This document shows positions 1,845 to 61,433 of a stretch of DNA of 64,000 nucleotides, piece by piece. Both the position numbers and the translations under genes were made by a program. Under the pieces are notes generated by a model, which worked only from the letters and a program-made list of their open reading frames with translations, had not been told where the DNA came from and searched no databases. The stretch is from Mangrovibacterium sp. (GTDB lineage: Bacteria; Bacteroidota; Bacteroidia; Bacteroidales; Prolixibacteraceae): assembly GCA_047971925.1 (NCBI GenBank), contig JBKEAC010000085.1:10794-74793 (forward strand). Direction: 5' to 3'. Each line of letters opens with the position of its first letter. Within the stretch, counting starts at the first letter, position 1.

Positions 1845-3239
1845 ATGACCCAGACACATGATTTGGCACAGAAGCCAATTTCAAAACTACTACTCTCCTT
1901 TTTTATACCTGCATTTATTGGTGTTTTCATTAATGCTTTATATAACATTGTTGACCGCATTTTTATTGGTAATTTGGTAGGAGCCGATGCGCTTAGTGGA
2001 GTTTCAATCATCTTTCCCATCATGTTAGCCATGACTGCTTTTGGCATGCTCTTAGGTATCGGTGGTGGCATCCTTATTTCCATCAATCTGGGGAGAAAAG
2101 ATCTAACTAAAGCCAATCAGGTTCTTGGTACAAGTTTCCTCCTAATAGTCATCACGGCAACAATTATCACTTCCATTGGCATGATCTACAAGGAATCTCT
2201 CCTCCGAATGTTTGGAGCAACCGATTCTACGCTGAATTATGCCAATGAATATCTAAGTTACATTCTTCTTGGAACTATCTTTCAATTAGTAGGATTTTCT
2301 CTCAACAACATTATTCGTTCTGAAGGGAATGCCCGAATAGCAATGATTTCAATGCTCATGAGCGCAGGCTGCAACATTTTGCTCGACTACATTTTGGTAT
2401 ATCATCTAAAAATGGGAGTTGCTGGTGCTGCTATTGCTACCGTTGTTTCAATGGCCTTATTATCGGCATGGGTAATTTTCCACTTTAAAAGTTCTCGTTC
2501 AGTGGTGAGCTTAAAAAAGAAATACATCAAACTAGACTTCCGCTTAGCAAAAGAAATTGGAAATACGGGTTTCCCACCTTTCTCCATGCAACTTGCTGGT
2601 TCAATTGTACAAGGATTAATTACCACGCAATTAGTTGCTCTGGGAGGCGACTTAGCCGTTGGTGCCATGGGAGTCATTATATCCATATCGATGATGATCA
2701 TTATGAGCATGGTGGCTATCAACATGGCTAGTCAGCCTATTTTTGGATATAACTATGGTGCTATGAATTACCTCCGAGTAAAATCATGCCTCGTCTTGTC
2801 CATGTCTGCTGCTACTGTTATTGGTATTTTGAGCTTCGCAATTGTTCAATTATTTCCTCACATTCTGGTTGATTTCTTCAATAACGACTCTCCAGAACTC
2901 ATCGAAATAAGCAAAAAAGGTCTACAAATTGCCATGGCTAGCCTACCTATCATTGGATTTCAAATTATCATTGGAAATTACTATCAATCGATAGGAAAAT
3001 CACGCATTGCCACCATTCTTCCTCTGCTCAGACAAGTCATTGTGCTGACTCCTTTAATATTCATATTACCTAAGTTTTGGGGATTAAACGGTGTTTGGCT
3101 TGCCATGCCGATATCTGATGCGGTTGCCGCAATCATCGTTTTATTCTTTATCAAAAAAGATTGGAAGAGACTAAATGATTTAATCTTAGACGAAAAATCT
3201 AAGTTAGCTTTATCGCCTAATCCCTCAACTGACTTTTGA
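1845..3239 (+). CDS. MATE family multidrug/toxin efflux transporter
   Basis: 464 aa, about 12 hydrophobic helices. The N-terminal KLLLSFFIPAFIGVFINALYNIVDRIFIG motif is typical of MATE/NorM-like proteins. Confidence 0.8.
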   Translation: MTQTHDLAQKPISKLLLSFFIPAFIGVFINALYNIVDRIFIGNLVGADALSGVSIIFPIMLAMTAFGMLLGIGGGILISINLGRKDLTKANQVLGTSFLLIVITATIITSIGMIYKESLLRMFGATDSTLNYANEYLSYILLGTIFQLVGFSLNNIIRSEGNARIAMISMLMSAGCNILLDYILVYHLKMGVAGAAIATVVSMALLSAWVIFHFKSSRSVVSLKKKYIKLDFRLAKEIGNTGFPPFSMQLAGSIVQGLITTQLVALGGDLAVGAMGVIISISMMIIMSMVAINMASQPIFGYNYGAMNYLRVKSCLVLSMSAATVIGILSFAIVQLFPHILVDFFNNDSPELIEISKKGLQIAMASLPIIGFQIIIGNYYQSIGKSRIATILPLLRQVIVLTPLIFILPKFWGLNGVWLAMPISDAVAAIIVLFFIKKDWKRLNDLILDEKSKLALSPNPSTDF

Positions 3240-3283
3240 TCCTAATTTCATTTCTAAAAAATGCCTATCTACAATGCTTCTAC

Positions 3284-4513
3284 TTAAAACTTGAGGTATA
3301 AATTGCTATCTCCATAGCTCAAAAATCGATAAGCGTTTTCAAGCGCATGAGCATAGACCCGCTTCCATTCATCGCCGATAAAGGCAGAAATTAACAAAAG
3401 CAATGTACTCTGCGGTTGGTGAAAATTGGTTATCATGCCTTGAACCAACTTAAAATCATAACTAGGAACGATGATAATTTTTGTATGAAATGCTAATTGT
3501 TGCAAACATCGTTTTTCCATGTAATCTATAAGTACTTGCAACGATTGATCTGCCGAAATATGCAGCTCATCTTCATAGGGCATCCATTGCTGAATTACCA
3601 TGTTCTCTTCTGATAAATTGGGATTCTCAAATATTTTAACTCCCAACCAATACAGACTCTCCAAACTTCTAATAGAAGTAGTACCAACTGCAATAAGCTT
3701 GCCGCGATTTTGCTGCAACTGCTGAATAAAACTCTTTGTTATTATTACCTGCTCTGCATGCATTTCGTGCTCACCAATTTTATCTGATTGCACAGGCCTA
3801 AATGTTCCTGCCCCAACGTGCAAAGTTACTTCCGAGCGACGAATATTCTTATCGCTCATCTTTGAAAAAATTTCATCAGTAAAATGCAATCCTGCTGTAG
3901 GAGCCGCTACCGATCCTTTCTCCTTTGAATAGACCGTCTGATATCTCTCGATGTCATTTTCTTCGGTTTCTCGATGAAGATAAGGTGGAATAGGTAAAGT
4001 TCCAATTGCCTCAATGATTGTCGCAAAATCAAACTTCTCATTATCCCACGAAAAGCATATTTGAACAGCTGTTTCTTTGCGTACTAATTTTTCAGCACAA
4101 AACACCACCTCTTCCCCACCTATATTCACTTGAAGTGTGAGTATTTCATCTTTCCACTTCTTCAAATTACCCACCATGCAATTCCAAACACATGATTTTC
4201 GCTGCTGAAATACCAACTGATAATCGGAAGGATGATGCGGATCAAGACAAAATATCTCGATATGCGCACCCGTTGATTTCTTAAAATACAATCGTGCGCG
4301 TATGACTTTTGTATTATTAAATACCAATAAACTATCTTGAGGAATATAATCTACTAGCGATTTAAACATCGCATCTTCAATCTGCCCATCACGCCAAACC
4401 AGCAACTTCGATAAATCTCTTTCCGCCAACGGACGAATAGCTACATGCTCATCGGGCAAATAATAATTTAATTCATGTGCGTCTTGAGACTTTATTTTAT
4501 GAAGATCTTTCAT
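3284..4513 (-). CDS. queA: S-adenosylmethionine:tRNA ribosyltransferase-isomerase
   Basis: 409 aa with QueA signatures LPIPPYL, AAPTAGLHFT, LHVGAGTFRPV, AVGTTS.R.LES, NFHQPQSTLLLL. Confidence 0.9.
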   Translation of the reverse strand: MKDLHKIKSQDAHELNYYLPDEHVAIRPLAERDLSKLLVWRDGQIEDAMFKSLVDYIPQDSLLVFNNTKVIRARLYFKKSTGAHIEIFCLDPHHPSDYQLVFQQRKSCVWNCMVGNLKKWKDEILTLQVNIGGEEVVFCAEKLVRKETAVQICFSWDNEKFDFATIIEAIGTLPIPPYLHRETEENDIERYQTVYSKEKGSVAAPTAGLHFTDEIFSKMSDKNIRRSEVTLHVGAGTFRPVQSDKIGEHEMHAEQVIITKSFIQQLQQNRGKLIAVGTTSIRSLESLYWLGVKIFENPNLSEENMVIQQWMPYEDELHISADQSLQVLIDYMEKRCLQQLAFHTKIIIVPSYDFKLVQGMITNFHQPQSTLLLLISAFIGDEWKRVYAHALENAYRFLSYGDSNLYLKF

Positions 4514-11939: not shown

Positions 11940-11984
11940 TTTTCGTAATTTATTGTTTCACAATGCAATATTATTCATCAAAAG

Positions 11985-12056
11985 TGACCCCAATGAGACT
12001 CGAACTCATATCGTCAGAACCGGAATCTGATATTCTATCCATTGAACTATGGAGCC
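11985..12056 (-). tRNA. tRNA-Arg (anticodon CCG)
   Basis: Hand-folded cloverleaf on the minus strand: acceptor GGCTCCA/TGGGGTC, D arm GTTC-AATGGATA-GAAT, anticodon arm TCAGA-TTCCGGT-TCTGA (CCG), T arm ATGAG-TTCGAGT-CTCAT, discriminator A. Length 72 nt, no encoded CCA. Confidence 0.85.
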
Positions 12057-12063
12057 AATCGCA

Positions 12064-12071
12064 CAAAAGTA
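12064..12071 (-). promoter_or_regulatory. Bacteroidota -7 promoter box (TACTTTTG) for tRNA-Arg
   Basis: Plus-strand CAAAAGTA is TAnnTTTG on the minus strand, ending 8 nt upstream of the mature tRNA 5' end. Confidence 0.45.
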
Positions 12072-12209
12072 AAAAAAACATTCATATAATTATCTAATTA
12101 AACCATCATAATATCACTTTTACTCTTATTTCACATATAACCTCAACCAAACACAGCTCTCAAATAGCCAATTTCAAGCATCTTTATACATTTCCATAAA
12201 AAAACTATT

Positions 12210-12336
12210 CTTTGGGGGTGCCGGCATCTCTCCTCGCCACTTGCCCACGCCCTGCCGTCGCGCTTTCCGCTACAATCTTTTCCCGCCTTAGGTCGGGAAA
12301 AGGATTTTCGCTGCAATCGCTCACCCAGCTTCGCCA
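12210..12336 (-). ncRNA. Candidate structured RNA, copy A (unclassified family)
   Basis: Conspicuously GC-rich island in AT-rich intergenic DNA. It is homologous to copy B (12921-13055) in inverted orientation. The conserved blocks are GGGUGAG, AAAUCCUUUU..AAAAGAUUG, CGGAAAGC.CGACGGCAGGGC, UGGGCA, UGGCG.GGAG and AUGCCGGCACCCCC. The internal hairpin has a different sequence from copy B. On the minus strand a U-run (TAGTTTTTTT) follows about 10 nt after the 3' end. Confidence 0.5.
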
Positions 12337-12793
12337 CTCATCAGAAATTGCAATGTAAAATGAAATTAGCCTCTAAAAAAAAAAACAAATGATCAGATGA
12401 ATTGTTAAAAAGTATTTATTTAGTGTCATTTTATGCAAGGTCGCATGCATTGAGGAAAGCTAACTTGAAGTAATAAATAGGCGCAAACACATGGCAACCC
12501 CTTTAACAATCGAGGTTCATGAAGAATGAATGACGAATGCATTTTGAACTTTTATGATGCATCCGTCGCAACAGACGGACACGCTTTGTACTTTTTGTGC
12601 GAATAATTTTTGTTAGATTGTGAATTCGTGTTAAAAGCAAAGCAATATGACAGATCGAATAGTTAACCCGAGTTAAAAGTAACCTCGTAATTAAATTCAG
12701 ATTGTTAATAAAAGTTATAAGCAGACGAATAATCAATTGCGTATTGTGTCAAAAAGTGCAATATTGGTCAATAAATAGAAAATTACAGACTAC

Positions 12794-12887
12794 ATTTTAA
12801 CACTTTCAAGCTATATCGGAGTAAAAATAGACGAGATTTTAACATTTTTAAGTTATCAAGAAAACTCAAAGCAGATGATTTTAACAT
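12794..12887 (+). repeat. Three direct ATTTTAACA(C/T) boxes spaced exactly 42 bp apart
   Basis: Boxes start at 12794, 12836 and 12878, just upstream of the putative promoter of RNA copy B. Confidence 0.6.
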
Positions 12888-12912
12888 TTCTTTTTTGAGC
12901 ATTTAGCTTCGG

Positions 12913-12920
12913 TAGTTTTG
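12913..12920 (+). promoter_or_regulatory. Bacteroidota -7 promoter box (TAGTTTTG) upstream of RNA copy B
   Basis: Exact TAnnTTTG match ending a few nt before the conserved RNA block starts (CAGCCGGGUGAGG). A TTTG lies upstream, although the spacing is shorter than consensus. Confidence 0.4.
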
Positions 12921-13055
12921 CACAGCCGGGTGAGGTATTGGCGTGGAAATCCTTTTAAGTGGGCTTTGCCTTTTGCCCACTTAAAAGATTGGAACGGAAA
13001 GCCCGACGGCAGGGCTGGGCATTGTGGCGGGGAGGAATGCCGGCACCCCCAAAAG
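12921..13055 (+). ncRNA. Candidate structured RNA, copy B (unclassified family)
   Basis: GC-rich island with predicted closing helix GGGUG/CACCC, helix AAUCCUUUU/AAAAGAUU capped by an 8-bp hairpin AAGUGGGC-loop-GCCCACUU, hairpin GCCC-GACGGCA-GGGC and hairpin GGCAU..AUGCC. Homologous to copy A. Confidence 0.5.
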
Positions 13056-13221
13056 CCACAAGCACAGCATAACAATCACAGACACATGGGTAAAGAAAAA
13101 TAAAGCACTAATACTCATATAAATTCAGAAGAAAACATATCGATTAGCAAGCATCAATTTTTAATTTAAAATTCCACCTTTTTTTTCTCAAAAATAAAAC
13201 CCGTAATCAAGTTGAAAAAAC

Positions 13222-13229
13222 TATCTTTG
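13222..13229 (+). promoter_or_regulatory. Bacteroidota -7 promoter box (TATCTTTG) for purL
   Basis: Exact TAnnTTTG match 47 nt upstream of the purL ATG. Confidence 0.45.
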
Positions 13230-13275: not shown

Positions 13276-16200
13276 ATGATTTCTTTTTTCAAGACACCTT
13301 CGAACAGCGTGATAGCCGTTCATTCTTCTGAAAAAATTGACAATTCAAGCACCAGCAAGCTTATCTGGCTTTTTGGTCATGCCGAGTATCTTTCGGCAAC
13401 GCAAATTGCAGGAACTTTCGTGGGACCACGCAAAGAAATGATTACCCCTTGGAGCACAAATGCCGTTGAAATCACTCAAAACATGAGTATCAGCGGCATT
13501 ATTCGTATAGAGGAGTTTGTGGAAGTGCCTAACAAAAATGCAGGTTTCGACCCCATGCTTCAACGCATGTATGAAGGGCTCAACCAAGATATATTCAGCA
13601 TTAACAAACAACCTGATGCTATTGTTGAAGTTAGCGACATGGCTGCCTACAACGAAAAAGAAGGCTTGGCATTGAGCTCTGATGAAATTACTTATTTAGA
13701 ATCGGTGGCTAAAACTTTAGGACGGAAATTAACCGATAGTGAGGTGTTTGGTTTCTCGCAAGTGAACTCGGAACACTGCCGCCACAAAATATTCAACGGC
13801 ACATTCATCATTGATGGTGTGGAGCAAGAAATGTCGCTGTTCAAAATGATTCGCAAGACTTCTGAAATGAACCCGAACCAAATTGTTTCTGCCTATAAAG
13901 ACAACTGCTCATTTGTGCAAGGTCCGGTGGTGGAACAATTCGCTCCAGCAAGTCATGACAAACCCGATTTCTTTGAAATTAAAGATATAGAGACTGTTCT
14001 TTCGCTAAAAGCCGAAACGCACAACTTCCCCACTACAGTAGAACCTTTCAATGGTGCAGCAACAGGAACGGGAGGCGAAATTCGCGACCGTATTGCAGGA
14101 GGAAAAGGCGCATTGCCGATTGCAGGAACAGCCGTTTACATGACTTCCTATCCTCGCAGTGAGGCAGGTCGATCGTGGGAGCAAGCCACAGAAGAAAGAG
14201 ATTGGTTATACCAAACTCCCGAAGAAATATTGATTAAAGCATCGAATGGGGCTTCAGATTTTGGAAACAAATTTGGGCAGCCTCTTATTACAGGTTCGGT
14301 GCTCACTTTCGAACACTTTGAAAACAATAAAAAATACGGCTACGATAAAGTAATTATGATGGCTGGTGGCATCGGCTTTGGAAAAAAGGTAGATAGCTTG
14401 AAAGACAAACCAACTGCTGGCGATAAAGTAGTGCTTTTAGGTGGCGACAATTACCGCATTGGCATGGGCGGTGGCGCCGTTTCATCGGTAGCAACAGGCG
14501 AATTTGAAAACGCTATTGAGCTAAATGCAGTGCAGCGTGCCAATCCTGAAATGCAAAAACGTGCCTACAATGCCATTCGTGCGCTGAGTGAATCGGAAAA
14601 CAACCCAATTGTTTCTATTCACGACCACGGTGCAGGCGGACACTTAAATTGCCTCTCGGAATTAGTGGAAGAAACTGGCGGACACATTGACACAGCTAAA
14701 TTGCCTGTGGGCGACCCTACTCTCTCGCAAAAAGAAGTGGTTGGTAATGAAAGTCAAGAGCGCATGGGGCTTGTAATGAATGGCAAAGATGTGGCTTGGT
14801 TGCAACGTGTGGCAGATAGAGAACGCTCGCCCATGTATGTCATTGGTGAAGCTACTGGCGACATGCAATTTACTTTCGAAAACTCGAAAACAGGCGAAAA
14901 ACCAATCGACTGGCAATTGAAATACATGTTTGGCAATCCACCAAAAACAATCTTAACCGATACAACAAAAGAAGAAAAATTTGCTGAATTAGGATATAAA
15001 ACAGAAGAACTGCAAAAAAACTTAGAACAAGTGTTGCAGTTGGAGTCGGTGGCTTGTAAAGACTGGTTAACTAACAAAGTTGACCGCTCAGTTACTGGAA
15101 GAATTGCGAAACAACAGTGCGCTGGTGAATTGCAATTACCATTGAACAACTGCGGTGTTATCACTCTCGACTATCAAGGGAAAGCGGGATTTGCAACCTC
15201 AATTGGTCATGCACCAGTAGCGGCAATGATTGACCCAGCTCGTGGCTCTGTGCTTTCCATTGCCGAATCGCTCACTAATATTATTTGGGCTCCGATGCCT
15301 GAAAAATTGAAATCTGTTTCGCTTTCTGCTAACTGGATGTGGCCAGCTAAAAATGAGGGCGAAAATGCTCGCATTTATAAAGCCGTGAAAGCAGCTTCTG
15401 ACTTTGCTTGTGAATTAGGCATTAACATTCCAACGGGAAAAGACTCGATGTCGATGACTCAAAAATATAAAAACGATGTGGTTTATTCGCCTGGATGTGT
15501 GATTATAACGGCATCGGGTGAAGTGACCGACGTGAAGAAAGTGGTAGAACCAGTGTTGGTGAACGACGCATCGAAACCCGTTTATTACATCGACCTTTCA
15601 TCAATGCATCTTGTGCTTGGCGGTTCAGCATTCGGGCAAATTATAAATCGCATCGGGCAAGAAGCTCCTACTGTTGCCAACACGCCTTACTTCATGAAGG
15701 CATTCAACACTGTGCAAGCACTCATTGAAGATGGCGAAATTGCTGCAGGACATGATGTAGCATCGGGTGGTTTAATCACCTCACTTCTTGAAATGTGTTT
15801 CTCGAATAATCGGGTGGGATTAAATCTCGATTTATCAGGAATTGGCGAAGCTGACACAACAAAAGTGTTCTTCAATGAAAACCCTTCATTAGTTCTTCAA
15901 GCCAATAACGCCAATTCTTTCGAAAGCAAATTAAACGCTGCAGGAATACGCTTTGTTAAGATCGGAACTCCATCGGAAAAACGTGAGTTTACAGTGTTGA
16001 ACCACGGTGAAAATTTATCGCTAGATATTAATGCACTTCGCGATCTTTGGTTTAAGACTTCTTACCTCATGGATAGAAAACAAAGTGGCGAAAAACATGC
16101 AAAAGTTCGCTTTGAAAACTATAAGAAAAATGCAATTGAGTTCGATTTCAAAGGATTTACAGGAAAGGCTTCCGATTATGGTATCGATTTAAAACGTCGT

Positions 16201-16962
16201 ACACCTAGTGGCATTAAAGCTGCAATCATTCGTGAAAAAGGTGTGAATGGCGAGCGTGAAATGGCTTATATGCTCTATTTGGCAGGCTTCGATGTGAAAG
16301 ATGTGCACATGACAGACCTCATTGAAGGTCGCGAAACTTTGGAAGATGTGAATTTGATTGTATATTGCGGTGGCTTCTCAAATTCCGATGTGCTTGGTTC
16401 TGCCAAGGGTTGGGCTGGAGCATTCAAATACAATGACAAAGCACGCACGGCACTTGAAAACTTCTATCGCCGCGAAGATACATTGAGCTTGGGCGTGTGC
16501 AACGGTTGTCAATTAGCTGTTGAACTTGATTTGATTTATCCTGAACACGCCGAAAAACCACGCATGCTGCACAATGAGTCGCACAAATTTGAATCGAACT
16601 TCATCGGCGTAGAAATTGCACCAAACAATTCGGTGATGTTGAAAAGCATGGCAGGCATGAAATTAGGTGTATGGATTGCTCATGGCGAAGGTAAATTCTC
16701 CTTGCCCTATGCAGAAAGCGAATACGACATTCCATTCAAATATGCCAACACTGGATATCCAGGTAATCCGAATGGTTCCGACTACAATGCCGCAGCTATC
16801 TGCTCAAAAGATGGTCGCCATTTAGCCATGATGCCTCACTTAGAGCGTGCATTCCGCCCATGGTTATGTGCTCACTATCCTGCAGATAGAAAGCTCGATG
16901 AAGTAACACCTTGGATGGAAGCATTTGCAAATGCTCGTGAGTGGATTTTTGAGAAGATGTAA
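13276..16962 (+). CDS. purL: Phosphoribosylformylglycinamidine (FGAM) synthase, single-chain large form
   Basis: 1228 aa with the FGAM synthase core (ETHNFPT.VEPF.GAATG.GG.IRD, DHGAGGH) and a C-terminal glutaminase domain with the catalytic GVCNGCQ motif. Confidence 0.95.
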   Translation: MISFFKTPSNSVIAVHSSEKIDNSSTSKLIWLFGHAEYLSATQIAGTFVGPRKEMITPWSTNAVEITQNMSISGIIRIEEFVEVPNKNAGFDPMLQRMYEGLNQDIFSINKQPDAIVEVSDMAAYNEKEGLALSSDEITYLESVAKTLGRKLTDSEVFGFSQVNSEHCRHKIFNGTFIIDGVEQEMSLFKMIRKTSEMNPNQIVSAYKDNCSFVQGPVVEQFAPASHDKPDFFEIKDIETVLSLKAETHNFPTTVEPFNGAATGTGGEIRDRIAGGKGALPIAGTAVYMTSYPRSEAGRSWEQATEERDWLYQTPEEILIKASNGASDFGNKFGQPLITGSVLTFEHFENNKKYGYDKVIMMAGGIGFGKKVDSLKDKPTAGDKVVLLGGDNYRIGMGGGAVSSVATGEFENAIELNAVQRANPEMQKRAYNAIRALSESENNPIVSIHDHGAGGHLNCLSELVEETGGHIDTAKLPVGDPTLSQKEVVGNESQERMGLVMNGKDVAWLQRVADRERSPMYVIGEATGDMQFTFENSKTGEKPIDWQLKYMFGNPPKTILTDTTKEEKFAELGYKTEELQKNLEQVLQLESVACKDWLTNKVDRSVTGRIAKQQCAGELQLPLNNCGVITLDYQGKAGFATSIGHAPVAAMIDPARGSVLSIAESLTNIIWAPMPEKLKSVSLSANWMWPAKNEGENARIYKAVKAASDFACELGINIPTGKDSMSMTQKYKNDVVYSPGCVIITASGEVTDVKKVVEPVLVNDASKPVYYIDLSSMHLVLGGSAFGQIINRIGQEAPTVANTPYFMKAFNTVQALIEDGEIAAGHDVASGGLITSLLEMCFSNNRVGLNLDLSGIGEADTTKVFFNENPSLVLQANNANSFESKLNAAGIRFVKIGTPSEKREFTVLNHGENLSLDINALRDLWFKTSYLMDRKQSGEKHAKVRFENYKKNAIEFDFKGFTGKASDYGIDLKRRTPSGIKAAIIREKGVNGEREMAYMLYLAGFDVKDVHMTDLIEGRETLEDVNLIVYCGGFSNSDVLGSAKGWAGAFKYNDKARTALENFYRREDTLSLGVCNGCQLAVELDLIYPEHAEKPRMLHNESHKFESNFIGVEIAPNNSVMLKSMAGMKLGVWIAHGEGKFSLPYAESEYDIPFKYANTGYPGNPNGSDYNAAAICSKDGRHLAMMPHLERAFRPWLCAHYPADRKLDEVTPWMEAFANAREWIFEKM

Positions 16963-21893: not shown

Positions 21894-23051
21894 ATGCTAA
21901 ATTTCACGTATAAAAACCCAACTAAAATTTTGTTTGGCAAAGGTCAAATTGCAAACATAACCAAAGAAATTCCTCAAGATGCTAAAATCTTACTAACATA
22001 TGGAGGCGGTAGTATTTTCAAAAATGGTGTCTATGACCAAGTTCGAGCTGCTACTGAAGGATTAAACATCATTGAATTCGGAGGCATTGAGCCCAACCCC
22101 AAATATGAAACGCTCATGCAAGCTGTCGAAATATGCCGACAAGAAAAAATAACTTTTCTCCTTGCTGTTGGTGGTGGATCTGTACTCGACGGAACCAAAT
22201 TTATTGCTGCTGCTCACTTTGTGAAAGAAGACGACACTTGGGATATTCTTAAAACAGGAGGAAAAATAATTAAGCAAGCTCTTCCCATCGGATGTGTAAT
22301 GACACTACCCGCTACTGGGTCGGAAATGAATGGGAATGCTGTTATTTCGAAACTTACTACCAAAGAAAAGCTTGGAATGCTAAGCCCATTAGTATATCCC
22401 CAATTTTCAGTGCTTGACCCTGATTTTATTTCGTCTCTTCCCGAAAATCAAATTGCCAATGGAATAATTGATTCATATGTCCACACCATTGAGCAATACT
22501 TAACCTACGATGTTGATTCTCCTCTACAAGACCGATATGCAGAAAGCATTCTAAATACACTCATCGAGGAAGGTCCTAAAGTTATTGCAAATAACAAAGA
22601 CTATAATGCGGCTGCAAACTACATGTGGTGTGCAACTAATGCACTTAATCATTGGATAGCTGTTGGCGTTGTACAAGATTGGAGCACTCACCAAATTGGA
22701 CATGAACTAACGGCTCTTCATGGAATCGACCATGCAAAAACGCTGGCAATTGTTCTTCCTGGAGTCATGAATTTTAAAAGAAAAGATAAAGCTAAAAAAA
22801 TCCTACAATACGGTAGTCGCATATTTGGAATCTCTTCTGGATCTGACGAAGAACGGATTGATGCAACTATTCATGCCACAGAATCTTTTTTCAACAAACT
22901 AGGAGTTTCTTGTCGTTTGTCCGATTATAATGTCACCGAAGAAAGCATTCTCACCATTGAGAATCGTTTTAAAGACAGAAAGAAATCAGATGGCGAGCAT
23001 CGCGACATTGACTGGCAAGCCACTGGAACTATTCTACGCTCAAGACTCTAA
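21894..23051 (+). CDS. Iron-containing (group III) alcohol dehydrogenase, YqhD/butanol dehydrogenase-like
   Basis: 385 aa with the GGGS..D..K nucleotide-binding motif (AVGGGSVLDGTKFIA) and metal-binding His residues (HQIGHELTALHGIDHAKTLA). Confidence 0.85.
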   Translation: MLNFTYKNPTKILFGKGQIANITKEIPQDAKILLTYGGGSIFKNGVYDQVRAATEGLNIIEFGGIEPNPKYETLMQAVEICRQEKITFLLAVGGGSVLDGTKFIAAAHFVKEDDTWDILKTGGKIIKQALPIGCVMTLPATGSEMNGNAVISKLTTKEKLGMLSPLVYPQFSVLDPDFISSLPENQIANGIIDSYVHTIEQYLTYDVDSPLQDRYAESILNTLIEEGPKVIANNKDYNAAANYMWCATNALNHWIAVGVVQDWSTHQIGHELTALHGIDHAKTLAIVLPGVMNFKRKDKAKKILQYGSRIFGISSGSDEERIDATIHATESFFNKLGVSCRLSDYNVTEESILTIENRFKDRKKSDGEHRDIDWQATGTILRSRL

Positions 23052-23123
23052 TAAAACAAACAGCAATAATCTTCAAAGAAGATTATTGCTGTTTGTTTTA
23101 AAAATTTCATTACCCTCTTCAAT

Positions 23124-28464: not shown

Positions 28465-29175
28465 TGAGGAATTAAATCAGTGCATTTTTAAATCCGTTAA
28501 AGATTGATTGAGTTTAAAACGAACAAACATCGTTACTTAAACACGTCTAACAACAATATAAATTGAAGCTTAATTCTATTCATAAAAAAAAACCTACATC
28601 ATTAAGCTTACTTAATACATCTCTTGAAAAAAAATATCACCCAATAAGTTTGCTTATTTTAACATATCAAAAAAAATATGGACAAATAAGCATGCTTAAT
28701 TCATCTCTTGAAAAAAAATACCACCCAATAAGTTTGCTTATTTTAACATATCAAAATAAATATGGACAAATAAGCTTGCTTAATTCATCTCTTGAAAAAA
28801 AATATCACCCAATAAGTTTGCTTATTTTAACATATCGAAATAAATATGGACAAATAAGCTTGCTTAATCCACCTCATGAAAAAAAATATGGACAAATAAA
28901 TTCTTATATAGCTCATGATTGAGAACGTTTATAGTCCTTTGACCATGCCTTTTGATGATGATTGATTGGCAATCAGAATGCATCGTGTCGTTCATTTTGT
29001 TTTATGAGGGCATCTTTTGTCCTAATTTCATAAAAAGACGTATTGCAATGCAACTCTACCATTAGGATGAAATCTACCCTCATAAAATCATAATGACCTA
29101 ACAGCTAATTTTTAGAAATCCCCCTAAAAAAAAAATCACCCTATTTTAAAAGTTGATTTACCGACAATTCGCAAC
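28465..29175 (+). repeat. Modular non-coding repeat element, copy 1 (left module + 42-bp unit array + right module)
   Basis: The roughly 115-bp left module (GGAATTAAATC.GTGCATTTTTAAATCCG...ATAAATTGAAGCTTAA) is, by eye, about 80 percent identical to 52945-53060. The right module is more weakly similar to 53370-53585. Confidence 0.85.
28582..28905 (+). repeat. Tandem array of about eight 42-bp units (three near-identical 84-bp double units)
   Basis: Each unit has a short variable part, an A8-9 tract, TAT, (CACCCAA or GGACAAA), then a palindrome AATAAGTTTGCTTATT or TAAGC(AT/TT)GCTTA. A-tract starts recur every about 42 bp. Confidence 0.9.
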
Positions 29176-61027: not shown

Positions 61028-61100
61028 GACTCAGTAGCTCAGCCGGTAGAGCACATCCCTTTTAAGGATGGGGTCCTGGGTTCGAATCCCAGCTGAGTCA
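61028..61100 (+). tRNA. tRNA-Lys (anticodon UUU), copy 1
   Basis: Acceptor GACTCAG/CTGAGTC, D loop AGCTCAGCCGGTAGAGC, anticodon arm CATCC-CTTTTAA-GGATG, T arm CTGGGTTCGAATCCCAG. Length 73 nt. Confidence 0.92.
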
Positions 61101-61163
61101 CTATTTTTAGTGTATTTAGCATTAGAAATATAGTCTTTATTTAGAAGACAAATAAACCGTGGA

Positions 61164-61236
61164 GACTCAGTAGCTCAGCCGGTAGAGCACATCCCTTTTA
61201 AGGATGGGGTCCTGGGTTCGAATCCCAGCTGAGTCA
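61164..61236 (+). tRNA. tRNA-Lys (anticodon UUU), copy 2
   Basis: Sequence identical to copy 1. Confidence 0.92.
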
Positions 61237-61305
61237 CACAAAATGCGAGTTCAAAATTCGTATCTTATCGACATACTTTCATTAAAGGAAGTATAATTCC
61301 ACGGA

Positions 61306-61378
61306 GACTCAGTAGCTCAGCCGGTAGAGCACATCCCTTTTAAGGATGGGGTCCTGGGTTCGAATCCCAGCTGAGTCA
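61306..61378 (+). tRNA. tRNA-Lys (anticodon UUU), copy 3
   Basis: Sequence identical to copy 1. Confidence 0.92.
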
Positions 61379-61433
61379 CCAAGAAAACTTTTTACAATTA
61401 TTTTGTGAAAAGTTTTTTTTTCATTCATACATT

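Follow-up and report, generated by a model that had tools for sequence, protein, structure and literature searches.

Two inverted Flavo-1 elements between tRNA-Arg and purL in Mangrovibacterium, and the three-way-junction architecture of their repeat-like family

The Flavo-1 motif was first described by Weinberg et al. in 2010 (Genome Biol 11:R31; PMC2864571) and has 239 members, nearly all of them from Flavobacteria and a few from other Bacteroidetes and Spirochaetes. It was rated as a probable RNA that is neither cis-regulatory nor a switch (PMC2864571). Rfam holds the motif as RF01705 and assigns it the type 'Gene; sRNA' (small RNA); no reported function for Flavo-1 was found in the literature searched. 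Here, we describe two Flavo-1 copies, A and B, located between a tRNA-Arg gene and purL in a 64-kb stretch of DNA from Mangrovibacterium sp. (contig JBKEAC010000085.1; hereafter the window), and compare them with relatives from other genomes. The Flavo-1 unit is a closed three-way junction of helices P1, P2 and P3, followed by a tail.

Two groups of intergenic repeats serve as references for this comparison. BOX elements of Streptococcus pneumoniae and ERIC/IRU elements of enterobacteria are imperfect palindromes of about 100–200 nt with conserved ends and a variable modular interior. They are intergenic in either orientation and often co-transcribed with their neighbors, and their function and spread are unresolved. 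As generally described, they appear to resemble Flavo-1 in size, modular interior and occurrence in either orientation; they would differ in having no sequence relationship to Flavo-1, which is branched and carries a conserved single-stranded tail. The REP, BIME and REPIN elements of Proteobacteria occur together with RAYT transposases. A REP is a simple GC-rich palindrome of 20–40 nt with a conserved 5' tetranucleotide.

Two inverted Flavo-1 copies between tRNA-Arg and purL

The 1.2-kb non-coding gap between tRNA-Arg and purL contains two islands with a GC content of 0.54–0.58 (12200–12350 and 12950–13100), set in adjacent non-coding DNA with values of 0.26–0.38. The islands are mutually inverted homologs of about 120 nt each. 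An inverted-repeat search pairs 12211–12281 with 12983–13053 (83% complementary over 71 nt) and 12298–12330 with 12924–12956 (79% over 33 nt), and the column identity of the pairwise alignment of copies A and B is 80%, flanks counted in. The segment between AAUCCUUUU and AAAAGAUU is wholly different in sequence in the two copies, yet each folds it into a hairpin, copy A with UUUUCCCG..CGGGAAAA and copy B with UUUUAAGUGGGC..GCCCACUUAAAA. A preliminary description of this DNA had reported the inverted islands, a set of conserved blocks, and the exchange of the apical hairpin in sequence but not in form. The GC profile, inverted arms and Rfam matches bear out the islands, the blocks are present, and the alignment and folds agree with the hairpin exchange.

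The whole window was searched with cmscan against Rfam 15, in which the gathering score of RF01705 is 42 bits. Copy A matches RF01705 with 56.4 bits (E = 1.4e-9; 12252–12334, minus strand) and copy B with 48.3 bits (E = 2.3e-7; 12920–13012, plus strand). Both matches span model positions 1–76 of 76 with all helices aligned and one non-canonical pair per copy. The islands are Flavo-1 copies of a subclass starting GCGUKAGGGAUUG. Since both exceed the gathering score, they are not the unclassified RNA that the preliminary description had proposed; it had itself named an Rfam match, which the search it suggested now gives for both copies, as the outcome that would end the novelty. Its view of the islands as homologous structured elements, distinct from riboswitches and housekeeping RNAs, is supported. 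No further Flavo-1 copy is present in the window, even at E values up to 10. The best relatives of the PurL N-terminus come from Sunxiuqinia, Marinilabiliales and Prolixibacteraceae, with identities of at most 79%, which fits the Bacteroidota host range of Flavo-1.

The window copies share with the published motif the hairpin strands GAUUGnAGnGGAAAUCC and GAUUGnAnCGGAAAGC and the variable apical stem, as well as the phylum, the intergenic position and the multi-copy occurrence. The 5' GCGUKA block is also present, unpaired, in the 2010 alignment. The Rfam model differs in being a single 76-position hairpin without P1, P3 and the CCAAA tail. It ends about 8 nt past the hairpin, at ..CGACGGCAG, and takes the 5' GGGUGA as an insertion. 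About 45 nt beyond this end are kept between copies A and B. The extended model R1, which includes P1 and P3, gives 81.8 bits for copy A (12210–12329) and 64.2 bits for copy B (12925–13054).

Several other assignments were tried and rejected. A permissive cmscan of 12100–13200 for other Rfam families covering the 3' extension gave Flavo-1 plus chance matches (DicF, RF_site3; E = 0.6–2.7). Single-sequence folding is not informative as evidence, with z-scores of −0.8 and −1.8. Integron attC sites, hammerhead and other ribozymes, tRNA-like structures, RNase P substrates and CsrA sponges were dropped on general consensus features: there are no cassette arrays and no catalytic cores, the tail is CCAAA and not RCCA, and a 5' GGA is not conserved.

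The features of the locus are as follows, with their basis in brackets.

12211–12326, minus strand: copy A, complete Flavo-1 of the GCGUGA-type subclass, from P1 through the CCAAA tail (RF01705 and model R1)
12322–12326, minus strand: copy A P1 5' strand GGGUG, partner CACCC at 12216–12220 (sequence reading; family covariation)
12216–12220, minus strand: copy A P1 3' strand CACCC; the tail CCAAA comes next, at 12211–12215 (sequence reading; family tail conservation)
12260–12320, minus strand: copy A P2, the Rfam core hairpin, with symmetric purine-rich internal loops (cmscan alignment, minimum-free-energy fold)
12278–12301, minus strand: copy A apical P2 hairpin UUUUCCCG-ACCUAAGG-CGGGAAAA (cmscan alignment, minimum-free-energy fold)
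12222–12257, minus strand: copy A P3, stem CGGCA/UGCCG (12253–12257 with 12222–12226) and 26-nt G-rich loop (same P3 type in metagenomic relatives)
12928–13054, plus strand: copy B, complete Flavo-1 of the same subclass as copy A, more degenerate (RF01705 and model R1)
12928–12932, plus strand: copy B P1 5' strand GGGUG, partner CACCC at 13044–13048 (sequence reading; family covariation)
13049–13054, plus strand: copy B tail CCAAAA (sequence reading)
12934–13004, plus strand: copy B P2 core hairpin (cmscan alignment, fold)
12953–12986, plus strand: copy B apical P2 hairpin UUUUAAGUGGGC-loop-GCCCACUUAAAA (13-nt arms 100% complementary, inverted-repeat search)
13007–13042, plus strand: copy B P3, stem CGGCA/UGCCG (13007–13011 with 13038–13042) and 26-nt G-rich loop GGGCUGGGCAUUGUGGCGGGGAGGAA (P3 comparison)
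12913–12920, plus strand: −7 box TAGTTTTG of Bacteroidota type, 7 nt 5' of copy B P1 (exact TAnnTTTG match)
12327–12927, no strand: AT-rich spacer between the 5' ends of copies A and B, with 42-bp-period motifs and without a credible open reading frame (open reading frame and repeat searches)
11984–12056, minus strand: tRNA-Arg(CCG), 155 nt 3' of copy A on the same strand (own −7 box at 12064–12071)
13276–16962, plus strand: purL (FGAM synthase), 222 nt 3' of copy B on the same strand (own −7 box at 13222–13229)

The defects of copy B are a U–C mismatch in P2a and a loop 1 that reads GGC and not GNA.

A closed three-way junction with interchangeable modules

A core-pattern scan of a genome collection gave 119 loci, which come from Flavobacterium, Chryseobacterium, Pedobacter, Chitinophagaceae, Sphingobacteriales and termite-gut spirochaete metagenome-assembled genomes (MAGs). 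Class 1 elements resemble the Rfam consensus and read ..UAGCC CCGAUUG..CGGGAAAUAGCUCC. Class 2, to which the window copies belong, reads GCGUKA GGGAUUG, then CCCGA, a hairpin, MACGC and CCAAA, and its 5' pentamer pairs with the pentamer just before CC. The pairing, helix P1, was tested in 65 relatives defined from their 5' side alone, because selection bias was to be avoided. A perfect Watson–Crick partner of 5 bp followed by CC is present in 50 of the 65, compared with a mean of 0.2 and a maximum of 3 for swapped pentamers. The 14 distinct pair combinations include GCGUU/AACGC, GCGUG/CACGC, GCGGC/GCCGC, GCGCC/GGCGC, GCAUU/AAUGC, GAGUU/AACUC and the GGGUG/CACCC of the window.

The segment that links P2 to the 3' strand of P1 is occupied by P3. 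All 41 linkers that are 10 nt or longer form a hairpin across the segment (mean z = −3.6), and P3 is missing in 9 of 50 elements. The tail after P1 is conserved as C (96%), C (94%), A (70%), A (87%) and A (79%), and the two bases 5' of P1 are pyrimidines. The unit is therefore a closed three-way junction plus tail. The closing helix GGGUG/CACCC and the GGCA/UGCC hairpin, suggested in the preliminary description, are both present in copies A and B; the former covaries across the family, and the segment of the latter (CGGCA/UGCCG) always forms a hairpin in relatives. A further stem, GCCC/GGGC in copy B and GCGC/GCGU in copy A, is wrong because the 5' GGG/GCG is the partner of the CCC/CGC stretch, in the basal part of P2; by inspection, the stem shows no covariation in relatives of the same subfamily.

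The basal strands of P2 align as GAUUGnAGyGGAAAUC and GAUUGnAaCGGAAAGC, both with the consensus GAUUGnAGyGGAAAkC. The stem is nearly two-fold symmetric because its two strands have almost equal sequence when read 5' to 3', and we infer that this symmetry may suit a dimeric protein. The internal loops of P2 are 3×3 and rich in G–A and purines. The apical part of P2 is freely swapped between copies.

A metagenome scan anchored on the base of P3 gave 64 loci. Many of them have a window-like loop that is rich in purines and G and contains two direct units (GUGCGnnGG, AUUU, GUGCGnGGG). The P3 loop of locus L134 (minus strand) is GGGCGGGAUUUGUGGGCGGG, a canonical four-tract G-quadruplex pattern. Shine-Dalgarno-like GGAG, AGGAG or AAGGUGAU sequences are also seen in many P3 loops. 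The relatives with a window-type P3 (L131, L136, L140, L153 and about 40 other metagenome loci within L124–L187) have a much larger distal P2, so that the whole element reaches 165–200 nt, and keep the basal platform, the G-rich P3 and the CCAAA tail. Their distal P2 is of two types, ..GCGGcACCCCACAGCG..GCGAGGAGUAUAGCGG.. and ..GCGGUUAUGAGCGCCG..(AU-rich)..GGCGCGAAAUUUGAGCGG... The 165–200-nt relatives are recovered at full length by R1 and escape standard annotation, because RF01705 scores them with 26 bits or not at all. The conserved part of Flavo-1 is the basal platform, and the distal modules are interchangeable.

Repeat-like distribution and head-to-head doublets

The copy number of Flavo-1 varies widely between genomes. 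The published alignment contains 96 copies from F. psychrophilum (2.9 Mb), 35 from F. johnsoniae, 4 from G. forsetii, and single copies from T. denticola and C. hutchinsonii. Copies from the same genome share idiosyncratic states of P1, P2a and P3, and subfamilies are lineage-specific. All spirochaete copies have a GCGCN/NGCGC P1, all copies in one Chitinophaga-like lineage have GCGGC/GCCGC, and one Sphingobacteriales MAG contains solely copies without P3. Correspondingly, copies A and B share both GGGUG/CACCC and the P3 type. The orientation relative to genes is mixed, with 24 sense and 28 antisense copies in tandem intergenic regions. Relative to flanking long open reading frames (ORFs), class 2 elements are opposite to both in 20 cases, in the direction of both in 15, in a convergent gap in 5 and in a divergent gap in 5. 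An all-against-all BLAST of the flanking ORFs of both locus sets, about 180 loci, revealed no recurrent neighbor gene family, and no RAYT/Y1 transposase was seen among these ORFs. Three relatives with 76–79% identity over the PurL N-terminus carry no Flavo-1 upstream of purL, and the neighbors at their loci differ. A bactofilin-based hunt for close strains returned only 2-kb contigs, which end short of the elements.

Neighboring copies less than 1 kb apart nearly always face each other with their 5' ends. Thirteen such pairs are divergent (window, L024, L096, L088, L056, L023, L169, L129, L163, L156, L138, L131, L179), one is convergent (L071) and none is tandem, where 25, 25 and 50% would be expected; the probability of this bias is about 1e-7 at a divergent expectation of 25%. 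The head-to-head layout in the window is therefore the typical doublet of the family. Doublet spacers range from 20 to 990 bp, and the partners may differ in class. In 59 of 84 single copies (p = 2.7e-4), a gene boundary is nearer to the 3' tail than to the 5' end, irrespective of the strand of that gene and at gene starts and gene ends alike.

In Flavobacterium micromati, the head-to-head pair of locus L096 (2336–3506) encloses a broken gene for an HNH_2 endonuclease domain, with ORFs at 2434–2742, 2748–3200 and 3187–3402 on the minus strand. It is the sole gene-enclosing pair found.

Dispersal of this kind could be produced by a cut-and-paste transposable element of the miniature inverted-repeat kind (MITE), with P1 and the base of P2 as terminal inverted repeats for a DDE transposase and the covariation as co-evolution of the ends. 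The ends of Flavo-1 are indeed inverted repeats with lineage-specific sequences, and the copy number is very variable. The helix pairs comprise 2626 Watson–Crick, 36 G–U and 43 A–C pairs, the last mostly from class 1 copies forced into P1, and two-sided changes are almost purely Watson–Crick with hardly any G–U intermediates. However, 50 elements examined under 32 boundary definitions show no excess of 3–8 bp direct repeats that would represent target-site duplications, and no transposase is associated with the copies. The apical P2 and P3 hairpins persist through changes of sequence, something a MITE would not require, and the mismatched internal loops are conserved. A MITE origin is thus very improbable. 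The preliminary description had allowed that the blocks might be terminal repeats of a mobile element found next to transposases; as worded this does not hold, no transposase being consistently adjacent, but the family does have the look of a dispersed, amplifying repeat. Carriage by phages or plasmids was rejected, with 3 matches in 2.9 million viral contigs and no BLASTN match in PLSDB.

The multi-copy, intergenic occurrence independent of gene orientation likens Flavo-1 to REP, BIME and REPIN elements, as do the single-strand hairpin kept by complementary changes, the lineage-specific variants, the over-representation of inverted doublets and the lack of target-site duplication. Flavo-1 differs from a REP in its length of 72–200 nt, three to five times greater, in its three-way junction and conserved non-canonical loops, and in being conserved phylum-wide and not species-wide. 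Unlike those of REPINs, its doublets have variable spacing and often dissimilar partners. No RAYT/Y1 was seen beside the copies in the loci examined.

A single insertion also recalls REPs. IS621 targets REPs in E. coli. At locus L067 (Bacteroidales MAG CAIRMR010000143.1), an IS110-family insertion sequence (IS; about 645–2215; Pfam DEDD_Tnp_IS110 and Transposase_20) lies inside the P3 loop of a class 2 Flavo-1, reminiscent of the REP-targeting IS110/IS621 elements. The 5' part of the interrupted element runs to ..CCCGACCCGAGG (about 644); its 3' part, ..GAGGGGAACGCCCAAA, occupies 2217–2239. At L034, a related IS lies about 50 nt outside a Flavo-1 copy.

As far as checked, neither the published motif nor the Rfam model includes P1, P3, the tail, the large variants or the doublet rule. 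These features extend a known family incrementally and do not establish a new class of RNA.

Transcription and the nature of the element

In the preliminary description, the islands were read as independent short transcripts, that is, as two sRNA genes of about 130 nt with their own promoters, acting in trans. The Rfam type and the closure of the structure by P1, as in many stable sRNAs, speak for this reading. So do the exact TAnnTTTG boxes that it listed, which are confirmed 7 nt before copy B and, downstream of the elements, before tRNA-Arg and purL. However, the window shows no enrichment of this 8-mer (72 occurrences versus 85 expected), so that a single one carries little weight. A −7 box is present at copy B alone; copy A has no good box, and no terminator-like site lies between copy A and tRNA-Arg or between copy B and purL. 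Among family copies, about 5 of 101 have a box within 25 nt upstream. Upstream boxes are not enriched on the sense strand (17 versus 14, 17 and 9 in controls), nor are terminators after the copies (7/118 versus 5/118 in the control). Head-to-head pairs 20–48 bp apart leave no space for two promoters. In the F. psychrophilum transcriptome of Guérin et al., Flavo-1 matches lie sense or antisense to transcribed regions, and many are untranscribed (PMC9723704); as evidence for expression as an RNA, these data are equivocal. The reading as independent transcripts is thus weak, and two dedicated sRNA genes are distinctly improbable.

A riboswitch-like or attenuator leader that controls purL in response to purine intermediates, and/or tRNA-Arg, would suit the position of copy B, which follows a promoter-like box and lies 222 nt upstream of the same-strand purL, and the compact junction. 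We consider it most implausible, since Flavo-1 precedes unrelated genes in either orientation and the nearest purL relatives have no copy. No expression platform, either a terminator or a start-sequestering helix, is present 3' of the element, and purL has its own −7 box 47 nt before the ATG. Moreover, the motif was scored as neither cis-regulatory nor a switch (PMC2864571).

In 107 apical hairpins, G–U pairs number 30 in the sense and 14 in the antisense strand, and the sense hairpin is more stable in 51 cases, the antisense in 28 and neither in 28, a weak preference for sense. In four Flavobacterium species, a class 2 element is situated between a conserved TAATTTTG box, 10–22 nt 5' of the element, and the start codon of a transaldolase/Fsa-like gene, named by eye from its sequence. 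This arrangement shows that some copies are transcribed in the sense direction and form the extreme 5' end of an mRNA. The orthologous leader copies differ by double changes in P1 (GCGUG/CACGC versus GCAUG/CAUGC) and P2a (GGG/CCC versus AGG/CCU), and their distal P2 and P3 are wholly replaced behind a nearly identical promoter. Module replacement between genomic copies therefore fits better than point mutation, and the pattern matches the difference between copies A and B. Copy B has the same box-element layout, with its box 7 nt before P1.

It is possible that Flavo-1 is a host-selected RNA module for protein docking, processing or 5'-end protection, which works when transcribed in sense; copies A and B would then be functional modules in the 5' leaders of tRNA-Arg and purL. 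The deep conservation of the junction and purine-rich loops, the maintenance of hairpins of variable length and sequence at two positions, and the weak sense bias in G–U pairs and stability are consistent with such a role. So are the conserved leader layout of the four species, its recurrence at copy B, and the sense orientation of both window copies to their downstream genes. We nevertheless find this reading, the chief alternative to the repeat reading given below, doubtful, if worth serious attention. About half of the copies are antisense to the surrounding genes, many are untranscribed in F. psychrophilum (PMC9723704), no gene class is associated, and genomes carry anywhere from 1 to 96 copies. 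In addition, G–U pairs are very few, the purL relatives are without the element, and copy B is mismatched at conserved positions.

The 600-bp spacer between copies A and B was considered as a decayed gene and rejected, the longest ORF, the sole one scanned, having 77 aa and no Pfam match. Within the spacer, two motifs each occur three times at intervals of exactly 42 bp, close to four helical turns: ATTGTnAA..GTTAAAAG at 12617, 12659 and 12701 (12617–12724), and (A/G)GAC..GATTTTAACAYTT at 12793, 12835 and 12877 (12793–12889). The second motif includes the reverse complement of the core of the first (TGTTAAAA). The Tandem Repeats Finder did not report these motifs. They look like a putative array of protein-binding sites just 5' of the −7 box of copy B. 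A motif resembling the spacer motif recurs, with −7-box-like sequences, in a tandem repeat at 28645–28835, whose unit, TAAGTTTG and then TATTTTAACATAT, is present three times at 84-bp spacing. Elsewhere in the window, three tandem tRNA-Lys(UUU) genes at 61028–61381 are spaced by about 136–142 bp and have identical Rfam scores and aligned tRNA-model sequences. The strong palindromic hairpin at 23047–23103, which has sub-threshold matches on both strands to unrelated families (Plastid-psbA-2 with 36–39 bits, mir-653), is probably a bidirectional terminator.

The absence of general promoters and terminators, the mixed orientation, the lack of a conserved neighbor gene, the variable copy number and the Watson–Crick character of the pairs make the family unlike sRNA genes or leaders. 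We tentatively favor, at somewhat less than an even chance, the reading of Flavo-1 as a modular structured repeat like REP, BOX and ERIC, here passively transcribed as leader sequence. Flavo-1 would then be no dedicated sRNA gene or sensor but an intergenic repeat akin to REP/BIME, BOX and ERIC, which multiplies within lineages and whose modules may be exchanged between copies by recombination. The platform fold, composed of P1, the P2 base, the P3 base and the tail, would be kept in its single-strand form because a trans-acting, probably dimeric, protein recognizes it. Such a protein would act in the spread of the element, or in RNA processing or protection. Each window copy points to a same-strand downstream gene with no terminator between them, and would therefore, if transcribed, be part of the tRNA-Arg or purL leader. 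Copy B would start almost at the 5' end of its transcript, because the −7 box is 7 nt upstream. Copies A and B would be generic structured modules and not purine- or tRNA-specific regulators.

Several observations weigh against the repeat reading. Conservation of the asymmetric, purine-rich internal loops and of the junction crosses order boundaries and reaches Spirochaetota; this would be uncommon in selfish DNA and resembles an RNA–protein interface under selection. G–U pairs and stability weakly favor the annotated strand, and one copy is kept in the same 5'-untranslated position in four Flavobacterium species. No mobilizing enzyme was found next to the copies, and target-site duplications are lacking. 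The doublets, with spacings of 20–990 bp and often dissimilar partners, are unlike REPINs.

A bolder proposal is that the platform is the recognition site of a dimeric protein and the head-to-head doublet the functional or mobile unit, so that Flavo-1 would correspond, in Bacteroidota, to the REP/REPIN-RAYT system but have a much more elaborate fold. The G-rich tandem P3 loop, with GUGCGnnGG twice and G-quadruplex-like in some copies, would be an accessory module. We regard this proposal as rather unlikely.

An orphan motif known since 2010 is thus extended by a closed junction with a tail, interchangeable modules, mostly head-to-head neighbors and a tendency of the 3' end to lie towards the nearest gene. 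These properties point away from an 'sRNA gene' and towards a protein-recognized repeat of the REP/BOX kind, and an extended covariance model would improve the annotation of Bacteroidota intergenic regions.

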